A stretch of 40,019 nucleotides of DNA from sequence record LR597642. One strand, given 5' to 3'. Made by a program: the position numbers. The stretch is from Escherichia phage Evi. Shown here piece after piece: positions 18,001 to 24,000 of the stretch (its first letter is position 1; each line of letters begins with the position of its first letter).

Positions 18001-21000
18001 TGCGTCAGCGCATCCAGCGGTGCTTTCAGGATATTGTCCAGGTCCCGACGGCGCTTATCCGGCGGCTCTGCAATAATTTTTATTGCCAGCCTTCCGGACA
18101 GATTTAATTTCAGTCGCTGCTGGCGAACAATAAGTGCCACATCACGGCGATAACGCTCACCGGCTTTTGATACAAAATATGTGCTGCCACGACGTCGCCA
18201 GTAGGTGTTCACCGTTGGCGGGTAAGGCAAAACAAACTCTATACGCATCAGTAACCTCTTTTACCCGAGCACGCCGGTTGCAAAGGCGTGATCAAGAAAA
18301 CGAAAAATTAAATCAATCTGGGAACCATGCTTTTCTTCGAACGCCAGCGGGTCCGCATGAAGCTCGTTGTGATGCTCCCGACACAGCGGTAGCGTGAAAA
18401 TATCGTGAGATTTTGTCCCCATCCCGCCCTGACCATGACCAATCAGGTGATGGGGATCGTCTGCTGGCTTACCACAACACGCACACGGCTGTGTCTTTAC
18501 CCAACGCGTGTATTTCTCATTCACCCAACGGCGACGTTTAGGTCGCTTCATGAAAGATTCCGGAGACTCCGGATCTACGGCAATGCTGACCACCGTCTTT
18601 TCCTGTGGTGCGTTCTGTTGCTGGTGGACGTGAGGCAACGGCGCAAGATTTTTTGTGCGCTGCTTCAGTATGCTGGTGGCGGTCTGCTCTCCCGGTACGA
18701 TGTCGCTTTCACGGTACATTGAGCGGATTTTTTCCGCACGCAACCCCAGCGAACGACGTAATACCGCTTCCGGTAGCGCGTCCGCCACCTGATTGCGGAC
18801 CGCCCACCAGGATAATTCAGCCAAAGATAATTCACGCTCCTGCGTACCGCTTATTGCGTGACCGATGACGTCAATCATCCATGCTGACAGGTTTTGATGA
18901 GCAAGTTGCTCGAGTGATTCGGATGTCTGGTCACGCAACTGGTTGTCGCAGTGCCAGCACAACACCATCGCGCCAGCACCGTAACGGTGAATGACGGTTT
19001 CACTATGGTGATAATCGCCGTGTGGCCACTGGCAGGATTTAACATGGCGTAACAGCCAGTCAGACAGCGCACCAACACCACCAGCAGCGCGAATCACCCG
19101 TTCGTTGCTGAAAAATGGCAGTAATGAGTCATCTTCCGCCAGCGGCTGGCGGACGGCAGGAACGACACCGGACGGCAGATTGCGCATGCTTTTCGGTTCC
19201 GGCTCCACGAGCACTCGAGGATTGTGAAATACCTGCATGGATTCACGACCTGGCTTAAGGACCACCAGCCCGAGTTCCGGCACCAGAACAGGTCTAAGTA
19301 ATACCCGCACGTTACCTCCAGATGCGTTGCTGGAATGTGCGGGATGAACGCGGTGGGCGTTCGGAGTAAGGGAGTCTGACTGAGATTATCCAGTGACGGT
19401 AGTCGAGGCTAAGAGCTTTCTTAACCTCGTATCCGCGCCTGCGGTAACACTGAATTATCCATTCCGCCTGCTCTTCAGTGCATGGAGGATGCTGGAACCA
19501 GTCTGATTTGAATGCGTGAAAACGCCGTCCGCACCTACTGGCAAAGACGGCAGAATCATTAGAATTGTGTAATTTGGTATCGTGCGCCATCGGTTGTCTC
19601 TGCTGGCGCAGCAGGTGCCAGTTGTTCAGGCTGGCGTGCGAATTGTAAACCAGAATGCCAGGAAAAAACAAAACCCGCCGAAGCGGGTTACGTGCGGGTG
19701 CGTTGAGGATGCCTGACACATCAGAGGTGGCGAGGGATTTCTCCCTCGCCTGGTCTCTTACTCCTCAGGTTCGTAAGCTGTGAAGACAGCGACCTCCGTC
19801 TGGCCGGTTCGGATTCGTACCTCGCAGAGGTCTTTCCTCGTTACCAGTGCCGTCACAATGACGGTTAAACAGATGACGATCAGGGCGATTAACATCGCCT
19901 TTTGCTGCTTCATAGCCTGCTTCTCCTTGCCTTTCGGCACGTAAGAGGCTAACCTACATGTGTTCAGCATGGATTGAGCCTCAGATTAATGTTAAGCGTC
20001 TTGCAGGACGCGTAATGTTAACTGGGGCTTTTCTCTATCTGCCGTTGGTGTTCATGCCCGAGGCAGATAGCCTCAAGCACCCACAGCCATTCTACTTAAC
20101 TACCGTTACCTCGCCAATATGAAATCAGTCAGAAAGGCGATCCATAAGAACAACAGCAAGGCAATAAATTGCCATTACAGCAGCAATAGCCAGCGCACAT
20201 TTGAGAACAAGCACCACAACCTCCTGTATTGGACGTACACCAGTCCTGATAAATATGAGGCTGTCTCGTCAGTGATTCAATACAACTATTGGGTATAGTT
20301 TCTGTGATTTTGTTCTGTAGAAATGGAACACGACAACCAGTCACCACCAGCACTTCTTTAAATACGCCAAGTCCGACGCAAGCTAACCTTCTAGTCCGCT
20401 TTGAGCGAGAAGCGGACGTTCAATGTGATAAAGCTCAGGAACATTGTCGTTGATGATGATAAAGAGGATCAGACTAACTTAGCACTTCTCATCACGTTGA
20501 TAAGGCATAGAAATTACAAACACTATTGTGAATATCGTTTTACTATAGTAAATTCAAGTAAGTTCTTTTCGTTCGTTATTACACAAAATAAAGTTCACTC
20601 TAAGGTTGAAAAATGTTAGATATCAGAATGTCACGACCATCTGAAGCAGATGAGATCATACAAATCTGGAAGAGTTCAGTGGATGCTACCCACGACTTTC
20701 TTACAGGTCATGACCGACAAGAAATCGAAAAAGAAGTTGTCGGCTTTTTCTCAGAAACTCCTGTATGGGTTGCAACAAATCAGGATGACCAACCGCTAGG
20801 ATTTATGTTTTTGCATAAGGGCCATCTGGAGGCACTTTTTGTAGCAGGCTCTGCTCGCGGACTTGGCGTCGGAAAACGTTTGATCTCTCATGCACTGGCA
20901 CTGCATCCAGAGCTAAGCGTTGATGTAAATGAACAAAACCAGCAGGCTGTAGGGTTTTATCAGCATATGGGTTTTAAGGTATCAGGGCGTTCCGATCTGG

Positions 21001-24000
21001 ATAATCAGGGAAGGCCATACCCCTTGTTGCATCTGAGAATGGCCAATAACATGTAACCAATGTGGCAGAGAAGATATCATTGATTTTTTTGGCTAAAAGC
21101 CACGATGTAAGAACAGCTCTGCTCACTATCTGGATTGCTCATTTGGTACTCGCTTGCAAAGGTAAGGGCAAGACAGTCACCGGCACGTAAATGATGGGTC
21201 TGATTTTTGACTCGAAAATCAAGGCTACCACTCATCACCCAAAGCGTTTGCCCGGAAAGATGCTCATTTGCGGAGGCGGGTATCGTCAACTCACCCATTG
21301 CAGGAATTTCAACTTTGATCAGTTCCGGGCATGCCCCCGCAGGAGACAAAGACCAACGAGTGATGCCTGATTGCTCATCCGTCCAGTGCTGTTGCTGATG
21401 AGCAAAACGAACCAGGGAATTCTGATGTTGCTCAAGCTCTGCAAAGAGTTTAGATAGCGTTACATTCATGGCGTTGGCCAGGCGGCTAAGGATAGTTGCA
21501 CTAGGGCTGGAGATGCCTCGTTCAATCTTACTAATCATGGCCTGACTGACGCCCGATCGTTGAGCAAGCTCTGTTACAGTCAAATTGCGAGCCTTCCTGT
21601 GTTTAAGCAATAAACGTGCAATATCGCTATCTACTATCTGATTTTTAGATTTTTTATCCATTTCAGCCCTCTCTTTCACCAACCTGATTATGCCATTACA
21701 TAAATTGGCCTGAAATAAATGATTTTGTAAGTCTGTAAATTCACTATTCCTAAGCGTGGTACTTCGTTTATACGCACCTATGACCTTAAAATATGAGTTG
21801 GTAAGCTTAACGTCCGCTTTTGGCACAAAGCGGACAACCACGCTAGCTCTATCCTGTGCCACAAAATGTCAATTCACATCTTAACTAATGCATTTTAATC
21901 TCGCCACTTCAATAAATACCGAACATCCCCCCTGATAAAACGACAATATGCGCTGCATAACTTCGCTTTTACGACACTCAGTACAAATTATATTATGACG
22001 CCTGTCGTAACGACGTATTTCTCCATCAGGTAATGACCAGATAAGGTCCGGATCAACCGCAGATGGTTTCTTCAGCTTTGCCCTTGAGAGCTTTTTACGG
22101 GCATTTTGCCAGTCCTTACGCGCCTGCTCAGACGGGAATAACCCGTAACCAGAGTTGTATACATCGCCACTGGCAACCAGCTCTCTGGCGAGAACGCTGA
22201 TCAGATATCTTGTCGCACCTGTTTTAGCTTCCAGTTGTCGTAACGTCTCGCGACCGCTCTGGCGCACAAGTTCGACCACCTGCCCTTTAATTTTTTCCCG
22301 CTCTTCCTGTGTAAAAACTTTTACCACAAGTTCTCCTTAAAATTACCTCATGACCTGAAATCAACACTTATCCCCTGAAACCAGGCGGAATTTCTGTATC
22401 AGGTTCAGAAATATGATTCACACAACGCTGGTTGTTCGTGCCGCTTACCGGGAGCAACCAGGGGTTCTCAAAATTCCGGTCCGGTCCAAAAAACGTCGTC
22501 GCTCGCTGAACAAATTCCGTTCCCGTCTTCCCGGTAGCCGCCAGGTATCTTGCGTAACGCCTCACACCATCCAGCATGGCCTCTGGTAGCACCCCCTCGC
22601 GTAACCTGGCTTTCCAGGCACTGAAAGCGGATTTCTTCGGGTTTGCCCCGGCACGCAACGGGTATTCCCGCCAGACCTGTTCGAACACATCAGGATAATC
22701 CACTCGTCCCACAGGCTGCCCGGTGTTTTCCGGGACTACCCGATCGGCTTCCCGCTGAATGGCGGAATCGGCTTCAGGCTGCTGAAGTTGGTGTGATTGC
22801 TCCTGCCTTGCGGTCATCACCTGCTGCACAGCGCCCGAATCGGCTTTCAGCGCATACGCTGAATCGGCTTCCGGTGTCGTGCCTGCTGGCTGACCAGGAT
22901 TGACGGTCTGAACATCCCCTGCCTGGTTCGTGGCGTTTTTTACGCCATGGACCATAGTGTTTTGATCTTCTTGATCTGTATCTTTATCTGTATCTTTATC
23001 TGTCGTGACTCGTCGTGACATGTGCGTGACATTTCGTGACTCGCCGTGACAATCGCCATTTTGTTCCCGCTTTCTTTCCCTCTCTCGCTGCGCCCTCTTG
23101 CGCTCTGCCGGAGATTTTGCGGTTTGCGAAATATTGCCGTTGTCCTCTTTCAGCACCTGGCGTTTTTCCCATCCAGTGATTAAATCACCATCAAGTACCC
23201 GCCCCTGCATCGTCTGCAAAATTGAATCAATTACCTCTTCTGTCACGTCGAGCGCACTTGCCAAATCTTCTGTCGTGACATCAATGTGACCTCGCGTGAC
23301 ATTTCGTGACGCGCTCACCAGGAGGTGGATATACACTGCCATCACTGTTGCAATTGGCTGCCCTGACACCCTGGCAATTGTTCGCCACTTAGGGTCATTT
23401 GGCATGTCATGCCATAATCTGAGCCAGGCGTTAGCCATACTCACCTCTTCTGATACCGAATCTTTTTACTCACGAGTTGCCGGAAGCGATTCGATATGGC
23501 TATTGTCAGTCAATGTACTGCCACAGCATTTCCTGCCGGGCCACCACGGTTCATCTGATTGAAACCGGCGATTGCCACTGCGACAAAATCATCAGCGTCT
23601 CTCACCAGTCGCTCCCGCGTCTCCACCAGCTCCCGAAAATAAGCTGAACTGTGGCTGCGCATTCTGGCCACCAGCAAAGGTGGCATTGCCTTTTCGATCG
23701 CTGGTAACAACGCCTGAATTTTTTCAACTGCATCAGGGGTGTCTTTCTCTATCCAGCGGAAAATTTTCTGAGTATTGCGAGCCAGAGCTTCCGGATGGCT
23801 GTCGTCATACAGTTCCGGGAACGTCATTCCCAGTTCGAAATACGCTTTGGTAATTTTCGCAGCCGGTATTTTTTCGCCGTCCGGATGCGCCCAGGCATTC
23901 ATCGCCATGCGGATGTGTTCATGCTTGATTTTCATGAATCAACTCCATCAGATAAGCATGCACTACAATCACCTTCAGCATGAACTACATGCGTTTGCCC

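Follow-up and report, generated by a model that had tools for sequence, protein, structure and literature searches.

The 40,019-nucleotide stretch of Escherichia phage Evi analyzed here (sequence record LR597642; hereafter the window) carries two convergent genes, one encoding an acetyltransferase of the GNAT family and the other a transcriptional regulator in which an XRE-type helix-turn-helix (HTH) domain is followed by a cupin domain. By comparative sequence analysis, the two genes are a conserved regulator-target unit in Enterobacterales and Acinetobacter. With moderate confidence, we favor the reading that the XRE-cupin protein is a local repressor, released by a ligand, that controls an acetyl-CoA-dependent acetyltransferase, and that regulator and enzyme together form a horizontally mobile unit. 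The pair provides a concrete predicted operator and a route to the inducer and the substrate of a YjaB-type acetyltransferase. In itself the pair is ordinary, a new and uncharacterized member of the class in which an XRE-cupin repressor stands next to an enzyme gene; what is noteworthy is the boundaries of the cassette in which it lies.

Enzyme, regulator and predicted operator

The acetyltransferase matches the Pfam models Acetyltransf_10, Acetyltransf_7 and Acetyltransf_1 (E 2e-13 to 1.5e-11) and scores 230.5 bits, against a cutoff of 134, with the NCBIfam equivalog NF007807 (YjaB / PRK10514) over residues 1-144 of 147; the same model gives 273.5 bits for E. coli yjaB and 228.9 bits for the partner GNAT of Acinetobacter. 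It is of the same length, 147 residues, as E. coli YjaB (b4012), whose nuclear magnetic resonance structure 2KCW was matched at E 8e-50, and 55% identical to it throughout. The acetyl-CoA motif RGLGVGKRL at residues 82-90 aligns with RGCGVGRVL of YjaB, and Tyr116 aligns with the catalytic Tyr117, whose replacement (Y117A/F) abolishes YjaB activity (PMC6199490). Judged by these features, the enzyme should be a catalytically intact member of the YjaB family, expected to transfer the acetyl group of acetyl-CoA to an amine. YjaB is one of four E. coli GNAT proteins that acetylate protein lysines on overexpression, it is outside the four overexpressed GNATs that inhibited growth, and what it does physiologically in E. 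coli is not yet clear (PMC6199490). A small-molecule amine is as possible a substrate of the window enzyme as a protein lysine. The window GNAT differs from YjaB in being an accessory paralog on a mobile cassette, found in ~2% of complete E. coli genomes, and in having a dedicated adjacent regulator, whereas yjaB is monocistronic beside metA and has no such regulator (PMC6199490).

An earlier note on this DNA had offered tRNA-acetylating toxins and antibiotic-modifying enzymes as leads for the GNAT, and neither was borne out. No toxin GNAT or aminoglycoside acetyltransferase (AAC) was found among the PDB sequence matches at E <= 10, and neither these nor any other resistance family were found in NCBIfam at E <= 0.01. 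Streptothricin and phosphinothricin acetyltransferases gave sub-threshold matches to the generic GNAT core only (E 0.017-0.12, with a streptothricin acetyltransferase in the PDB at 0.017), and none of the PADLOC-DB 2.0 families matched the enzyme. On the sequence side, this full-length member of the YjaB family falls in a housekeeping acetyltransferase family, YjaB being a chromosomal E. coli enzyme, which is the outcome that the note had named as speaking against its leads.

The HTH domain of the regulator is readily recognized (Pfam HTH_3, E 7e-17, residues 20-72), and Cupin_2 is weak on the single sequence (21.3 bits, below the cutoff of 27.2). A profile built from 39 homologs aligns with the XRE-cupin structure 1Y9Q along its entire length (residues 10-192, E 2e-18). 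The AlphaFold (AF2) model, with a predicted local distance difference test score of 88, consists of five helices and, at residues 92-191, a beta-barrel; in a Foldseek search with this model 1Y9Q came out on top, with cupin-only proteins at TM scores of ~0.7. The cupin domain is thus confirmed, since homolog profile and predicted structure both match 1Y9Q. In domain order and fold the regulator is the same as 1Y9Q of V. cholerae and PuuR, the putrescine regulator of E. coli. The PuuR model aligns over residues 17-189 with a score of 44 bits, far below its cutoff of 211 bits, and the regulator is therefore not a PuuR ortholog. There were weak HipB-type HTH matches in NCBIfam, and PADLOC returned generic HTH models only. 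A longer form of 261 residues, with the open reading frame extended to a GTG at 21862, was rejected: because the homologs are ~194 residues long and the ribosome-binding site and ATG are conserved, we take the 194-residue form to be the gene.

Upstream of the GNAT gene we predict an operator for the regulator, made of two palindromic units (Table 1). When the 160 bp upstream of the GNAT gene were aligned from 15 loci, Acinetobacter included, the block CACTATTGTGAATTTAATTTCACTATAGTAAATT (window 20521-20555) stood out, with no variation in 23 of its 35 columns; the invariant columns numbered 0 of 68 upstream of it and 3 of 57 downstream. Family-wide, the palindrome is of the TCCAC-TATA-GTGGA type, with the unit CACTATWGTG, and the operator block occurs once in the 40-kb window. 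Distant members of the regulator family, in unrelated GC-rich genomes, have the unit as well: loci L061 and L062 carry a perfect TCCACTATAGTGGA upstream of their regulator-GNAT operons, and TCCACTATAG stands just upstream of the distant regulator in L028, with variants in L025, L029 and L030. Upstream of an 82%-identical GNAT gene of Proteus, which has no regulator, the motif is absent. The motif thus follows the regulator rather than the enzyme, as expected of a cognate operator. A candidate promoter of the GNAT gene is overlapped by the predicted operator, and both of its hexamers are invariant in the 15-locus alignment.

The regulator probably has a promoter of its own, whose likely -10 element is conserved among 15 regulator upstream regions. 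In the alignment of these regions no conserved copy of the operator was found in the enteric and Acinetobacter clade, and regulator expression would for this reason probably be constitutive. Autoregulation in this clade was considered and rejected; the half-site-like ATAGTGAA of the window copy is not conserved. Certain distant homologs (L028-L030 and L063) have an operator-like TCCACTATAGT / TATAAT box ~6-10 nt upstream of the regulator ATG, and their first codons (ATG TCC ACT AT...) repeat the operator motif. This suggests leaderless or near-leaderless regulator mRNAs, together with autoregulation, in those lineages.

These elements can be assembled into a scheme that leans on comparative genomics and on characterized relatives. 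The regulator, expressed from its own promoter, would bind as a dimer or tetramer to the two CACTATWGTG units, which lie 20 bp apart over the GNAT promoter, and would keep the GNAT gene repressed. By analogy with characterized XRE-cupin factors, a small molecule in the cupin domain would release the repressor, and the enzyme would be made only when the inducer is present. The inducer would most simply be the substrate of the GNAT or a relative of it, and the enzyme may acetylate the inducer molecule, a related amine or protein lysines. The invariant Arg, Asp, Trp and Tyr residues of the cupin domain, together with the phosphinothricin-acetyltransferase-like partners of distant homologs, are a speculative hint of an amino-acid-like ligand. 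XRE-cupin factors of P. aeruginosa act locally as repressors, binding palindromes and occluding promoters; one of them, PA1884, has as its single target the neighboring GNAT gene PA1885, and XRE-cupin/enzyme units have been proposed to move by horizontal transfer (PMC7901475). Compared by description rather than by sequence, PA1884/PA1885 and the pair in the window are alike in being local two-gene units of an XRE-cupin protein and a neighboring GNAT with a palindromic operator and promoter occlusion, both of these predicted for the window; the window genes differ in that they converge, the GNAT is of YjaB type and repression is deduced.

Several points weigh against this proposal. The candidate GNAT promoter matches the consensus at just 8 of 12 positions, and a simple scan of both strands over 20300-21900 found no consensus promoters and no intrinsic terminators; given the negative scan, the promoter is assigned from conservation, and its occlusion by the regulator is something we infer. 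Convergence is not the usual arrangement of a regulator and its target, and the operator is ~1.1 kb from the regulator start in the enteric and Acinetobacter clade. Metal-binding histidines are not among the invariant residues of the cupin domain in the homolog alignment. The GNAT partners of distant regulators belong to different subfamilies, so that a common substrate is not readable from the family. Operator binding, repression, ligand and substrate are all inferred from sequence comparison and analogy, and the cassette occupies slots that otherwise hold defense candidates, which makes a role in phage conflict conceivable.

Conservation and loss of the pair

A scan of genome contigs yielded 11 loci with a relative of the regulator at least 75% identical to it. 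In nine of them (Raoultella, two of Serratia, Mixta, Cedecea, Kluyvera, Edwardsiella piscicida and two unclassified Enterobacteriaceae) a convergent gene for a YjaB-type GNAT lies 19-25 bp from the regulator gene. The other two are L017, in which the GNAT gene stands beside a decayed regulator, and L016, a 75%-identical regulator paralog with no adjacent GNAT. The convergent pair was also found on a Pantoea plasmid (L003) and in E. coli copies that are ~80% identical in DNA (L002 and L005). In Acinetobacter the arrangement is the same, identity to the window proteins being 60-63% for the regulator and 74-76% for the GNAT; the gap between the two stop codons is 64-74 bp there and 19-25 bp in the enterobacterial copies.

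The association extends further. Among regulator homologs at 33-44% identity, five of seven loci have a GNAT neighbor (three divergent, two overlapping on the same strand), and adjacency in such varied arrangements speaks for a deep association of this regulator clade with GNAT genes. The partners at that distance are ArsN1/phosphinothricin-acetyltransferase-like, RimI-like and YpeA-like, all below cutoffs. In Acinetobacter haemolyticus (L024, 1-2650) the pair adjoins an arsenic-resistance cluster with genes for ArsC, an ArsR-type HTH protein, a low-molecular-weight phosphatase, an Acr3-type SBF protein and an ArsH-like protein. Arsinothricin-resistance GNATs are known in ars operons, and this neighborhood may or may not be coincidence.

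An enzyme of antibiotic or antimetabolite resistance with a drug-sensing regulator would be a special case of the scheme set out above, and a quite improbable one. The GNATs beside two of the distant regulators do resemble arsinothricin/phosphinothricin N-acetyltransferases (115-131 bits, below cutoffs), and antibiotic resistance was raised as one possibility for PA1885 (PMC7901475). The window GNAT itself, however, matched no AAC or resistance model beyond the generic core hits already described, and its nearest characterized relative, YjaB, has no known resistance role.

Could the two genes be mere neighbors, with the regulator controlling something else or only itself and the GNAT made constitutively? 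We regard this as very improbable. It would agree with the convergent orientation, the lack of an operator copy at the regulator promoter and the solitary paralog of L016, but it does not account for a pairing kept across Enterobacterales and Acinetobacter and found again at most of the distant loci, for a family palindrome that sits in the GNAT promoter and is gone where the regulator is absent, or for the fact that both genes travel as one cassette in four contexts (see below).

The pair has decayed from either side. On plasmid pPant1 of P. vagans (L004) the GNAT gene is intact beside a regulator gene that lacks the HTH and is frameshifted, and in Edwardsiella hoshinae (L017) it is intact beside a regulator gene with an internal deletion. 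Retention of the enzyme after decay of the regulator is in keeping with a repressor rather than an antitoxin and contradicts a toxin. In Proteus mirabilis (L064, 3001-3450) the 82%-identical GNAT gene stands alone in the chromosome, between a phosphotransferase system/antiterminator locus and mutS, with no regulator; it may be a native YjaB-type gene of Proteus. The opposite loss is seen in O157-type strains, for example E. coli 28RC1 (L006, 5003-5704), in which IS1203 cuts the GNAT gene to its last ~30 codons and the XRE-cupin gene stays intact, adjoining ompT; many O157:H7 genomes have the same pattern of 63% coverage as 28RC1. Both kinds of loss fit a repressor-enzyme unit.

They also bear on the proposal that the pair is a toxin-antitoxin system of the TacAT, AtaRT or KacAT kind, in which the GNAT would acetylate aminoacyl-tRNA and the neighbor would neutralize it. 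The proposal is close to refuted. What speaks for it is general: some small GNATs of mobile elements are toxins, XRE-HTH antitoxins exist in other families, and the HipB-type matches of the regulator, weak as they are, point the same way. The GNAT, however, matched no toxin GNAT in the PDB at E <= 10 or in NCBIfam at E <= 0.01, its partner is an XRE-cupin protein rather than a ribbon-helix-helix/DUF1778 protein, and the genes converge and form no operon. It is intact where the regulator is destroyed in two lineages and alone in Proteus, the regulator is kept beside a truncated GNAT in O157 strains, and overexpressed YjaB does not inhibit growth (PMC6199490). The likeness to TacAT, AtaRT, KacAT and ItaRT is thus confined to a small GNAT of a mobile element next to a DNA-binding protein; there is no homology, fold of the partner and layout are different, and the window-type GNAT survives the loss of its partner. 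The earlier note had already argued from the convergent layout against a classical toxin-antitoxin operon, and here it was right, the partner being moreover an XRE-cupin protein.

Boundary hairpins and cargo slots

The pair lies between two 24-nt hairpins, hpB on the left and hpA on the right (Table 1), which have identical 8-bp stems, GTCCGCTT and AAGCGGAC, and different loops, TTGGCACA in hpA and TGAGCGAG in hpB. The two 40-nt boundary segments (20381-20420 and 21809-21848) form an inverted repeat of 80%. Folded as RNA, hpB gives -14.9 kcal/mol (z -2.3) and hpA -16.9/-19.3 kcal/mol. These are the only two copies of the hairpin family in the 40-kb window, where none would be expected. The hairpins coincide with the limits of homology: similarity to the P2-like, M19, Z247 and Pantoea copies begins at 20393/20394, and similarity to all other contexts stops at 21835. 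Neither the hairpins nor the 20-bp gap between the two genes were accepted as intrinsic terminators, as there is no U-tract and the gap folds no better than its shuffles (z-scores 0.0 and -1.0).

The unit from hairpin to hairpin (20393-21835) is 97.3-100% identical across four E. coli contexts. The first is the lambdoid slot between DUF977 and hokD, as in the window; the second is the P2-like slot between the tail sheath and tail fiber assembly genes, which is the classical Z/fun hotspot; the third, in mouse isolates, lies beside genes for a TonB-dependent receptor and a dynamin-family protein; and the fourth adjoins an integrase remnant and the S subunit gene of a type I restriction-modification (R-M) system. 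The whole unit has moved as one between phage cargo slots.

In both the lambdoid and the P2 slot, hpB and hpA, in the same order and on the same strand, also flank unrelated cargo (hairpin pairs at loci L034, L066-L068, L070, L071, L032, L033, L059 and L035-L057). The lambdoid slot shows at least seven distances from hpB to hpA (581, 1008, 1204, 1418, 1795, 2080 and 2216 bp), besides versions enlarged by insertion sequences (IS), and hpB is partly decayed in many of its copies. In 18 of 23 viral contigs, whatever the cargo, hpA lies ~50-110 bp past the stop codon of DUF977; in the window the distance is 46 bp. The cargo of this slot in related prophages may be an FRG-domain protein, a 269-aa protein, a two-gene pair, a 595-aa PDC-S39-like protein or others; the slot between the P2 sheath and tail fiber assembly genes holds the present pair, a 352-aa HExxH protein (EC93) or an S1 peptidase (strain 120899). 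The pair is thus phage moron or hotspot cargo, unrelated genes being found between the same conserved flanks in related phages.

The P2 Z/fun slot is a documented hotspot of cargo and defense genes (bioRxiv 10.1101/2024.10.15.618418; PMC9122126), and the pair might accordingly be read as anti-phage defense or an agent of phage conflict, protecting the lysogen from other phages or modifying a component of phage or host, for instance by acetylation of a protein of either or of a nucleotide-like signal, with the regulator as sensor or brake. In favor of this are the 97-100% identical cassette in that slot, the copy beside the type I R-M S subunit and integrase remnant, and the other cargos between the same hairpins, which match PADLOC candidates (the 595-aa protein PDC-S39 at E 3e-102, the FRG-domain protein PDC-S15 at E 7e-99) or, less strongly, have a Lit-like match (the HExxH protein) or protease-domain matches (the S1 peptidase; loci L035, L032, L070 and L071). 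We consider it unlikely all the same. The GNAT has no PADLOC match and the regulator only generic HTH ones, the pair is widespread in many genera, on chromosomes and plasmids, in unremarkable surroundings of metabolic and accessory genes, and in Proteus the GNAT gene stands by itself in the chromosome. Ligand-responsive metabolic regulators have this same architecture (PMC7901475), and phage hotspots carry non-defense morons as well. In the literature searched, no link between P2 hotspots and acetyltransferases was found.

Arrays of the same hairpins occur on plasmids. On the Pantoea megaplasmid pPant1 of P. vagans (L069, NZ_CP022517.1 245000-294000; locus 8880-28282), one stretch resembles a cassette array: 16 hairpins of one polarity are spread over 20 kb and separate nearly every gene or gene pair, among them five GNATs, an SDR, a methyltransferase, chemoreceptors and DUF proteins. 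The junctions are composite, hpA being followed by a linker of 14-18 nt and then by hpB. The sugar-metabolism operons of the next 20 kb are free of hairpins, and the annotation shows no integrase near the array. Sequences resembling hpA were found in 3317 plasmid records, mostly of Klebsiella, with up to 18 per record in Pantoea; chromosome-sized E. coli records gave one hairpin match only, within a prophage-like DUF977-hokD region. At the loci viewed, neither an integrase nor a transposase was seen beside the hairpins. Two IMG/VR contigs, L038 (100-170 and 6721-6835) and L047 (7175-7443), have tandem clusters of two to four hairpins with the same stems and different loops, spaced at 45-46 bp apart from one gap of 154 bp in L047; in L038 the clusters are near both ends of the 7-kb contig.

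We tentatively suggest, with doubt outweighing confidence, that hpB and hpA delimit a kind of gene cassette not described before, in which palindromes rather than flanking genes or transposases serve as the joints for the swapping of cargo. Such swapping would link the lambdoid DUF977-hokD slot, the P2 Z/fun slot, genomic islands and the megaplasmid arrays of Erwiniaceae. A hairpin- or site-specific recombinase supplied in trans could act on the joints, or else phage RecET or Red recombinases using short homology; the latter need ~30-50 bp of homology. An alternative candidate is that the hairpins are passive elements, like repetitive extragenic palindromes (REP) and bacterial interspersed mosaic elements (BIME), that serve phage recombinases as short homologies.

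REP/BIME elements and integron attC sites are, like the boundary hairpins, short GC-rich intergenic palindromes. The existence of two types with shared stems and different loops, joined in arrays by a short conserved linker, is BIME-like; the hairpins differ from genome-wide REPs in being concentrated in one 20-kb plasmid stretch and in phage cargo slots. That the hairpins keep one polarity over 20 kb of small accessory genes, with GNAT genes frequent among them, recalls integron arrays, and the hpA-linker-hpB composite is of attC size and bounded by ...AAC and GTT.... The attC reading was kept as a possibility and not adopted: the mobile unit runs from hpB to hpA with no R'-box end, its genes point in both directions and have their own promoters, and no integrase was seen nearby.

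A 2026 survey of P2/P4 hotspots stated that the mode by which cargo moves to and from other mobile elements is unknown, that transposons are nearly absent from these hotspots and that homologous flanking genes are lacking (PMC13586616). The finding of one conserved hairpin pair around unrelated cargos, both in plasmid arrays and in phages of two families, makes this gap directly testable. The hairpin sequences were not found in the literature searched, and the hotspot papers searched mention neither hairpins nor palindromes.

Prophage setting and distribution

The 40-kb window carries a lambdoid prophage similar to Rac and Qin. Its genes include those for an integrase, a RecE-type exonuclease, kil, DicF, a cI-like repressor, cro and ydaT, after which come the replication gene, DUF977, sok/hokD, DUF968, RusA, Q, tRNAs and the lysis and terminase genes. 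Read along the - strand, the order is cro, ydaT, replication gene, DUF977, then the regulator and GNAT genes, then sok/hokD, DUF968, RusA and Q. The two convergent reading frames described in the earlier note were recovered at the positions it gave, and its placement of them between the replication genes and hok agrees with this order. Its AT-rich upstream region is seen on both sides, the two promoter regions having a GC content of 0.35-0.39 against ~0.50 in the flanks. The view that the pair is horizontally acquired cargo holds as well, given that the content of the DUF977-hokD slot varies in related prophages and that the nearest DNA is that of Pantoea plasmids. Of that note, then, horizontal acquisition and the rejection of a toxin-antitoxin operon stand and the toxin and antibiotic leads do not; the conserved regulator-target unit, the predicted operator and the hairpin ends go beyond it.

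Table 1. Positions of the regulator-GNAT cassette, its predicted control elements and the adjoining genes in the window
Feature	Position	Strand	Remarks
sok/hokD	19758-20082	-	
Left boundary	20381-20420	.	Holds the 24-nt hairpin hpB, GTCCGCTT-TGAGCGAG-AAGCGGAC, at 20394-20417
Predicted operator of the regulator	20521-20550	+	Two 10-bp palindromic units, 20 bp apart
Operator units	20521-20530; 20541-20550		CACTATTGTG and TACTATAGTA; jointly a 28-bp palindrome at 20522-20549
Candidate GNAT promoter	20526-20554	+	TTGTGA-N17-TAAATT; overlapped by the predicted operator
Alternative -10 of GNAT	20544-20549	+	TATAGT
GNAT N-acetyltransferase gene	20613-21056	+	147 aa; Pfam, NCBIfam and PDB matches
Gap between the convergent stop codons	21057-21076	.	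20 bp; terminator-like structure absent
XRE-HTH/cupin transcriptional regulator gene	21077-21661	-	194 aa; ATG at 21661
Likely -10 of the regulator's own promoter	21687-21693	-	GCATAAT (TGGCATAAT in enterics); from 15 regulator upstream regions
Right boundary	21809-21848	.	Holds the 24-nt hairpin hpA, GTCCGCTT-TTGGCACA-AAGCGGAC, at 21812-21835
DUF977 gene	21881-22327	-	
Replication gene	22368-23444	-	

In the prophage and P2-like contexts the regulator gene is co-directional with phage transcription and the GNAT gene opposed to it; the GNAT would therefore be a moron expressed in the lysogen. Because the two genes converge without a terminator between them, read-through from either would be antisense to the other. 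More speculatively, phage read-through, being antisense to the GNAT gene, may silence it in lytic growth.

Of 5426 complete E. coli genomes, 119 (~2%) have most of the region 20498-21738, 13 of them at 95% identity or more. The ~80%-identical version, of strains of the extraintestinal pathogenic type, adjoins an icd' remnant, sitABCD and phage tail genes; in the deposited phages PhiR29_1 and PhiR29_2 it lies at the end, beside ompT, and the literature searched does not name a phage PhiR29. Outside E. coli the closest DNA of the module is on Pantoea plasmids (84-88% identity). In E. coli 95-3322 (L002) the ~80% pair is beside sitABCD in a prophage remnant at icd, and pPant1 (L069 1-2908) has an operon for a sit-type Mn/Fe transporter at a distance of ~23 kb from the pair; the proximity of sit genes in both may hint at a shared origin for the sit island of E. 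coli. E. coli 2015C-4136CT1 (NZ_CP027550.1 1452708-1456904) has a ~100% match to the region, with an IS110-family transposase inside the equivalent of 19700-22400, which spans 4197 bp against 2701 bp.

At E <= 0.1 over 19300-22400, Rfam gave only sok and a sub-threshold isrK-like match, and the hairpins had no match. The sok antisense RNA that accompanies hokD is at 19908-20082 (-) with 113 bits, and the isrK-like match lies just downstream of it at 19668-19749 (-), with 27.8 bits against a gathering score of 50. Elsewhere in the prophage there are the small RNA STnc100 at 15625-15811 (-; 120 bits), DicF at 27113-27164 (+) and, between Q and the lysis genes, the tRNA genes Arg-TCT, Lys-TTT and Met-CAT at 16589-16830 (-).

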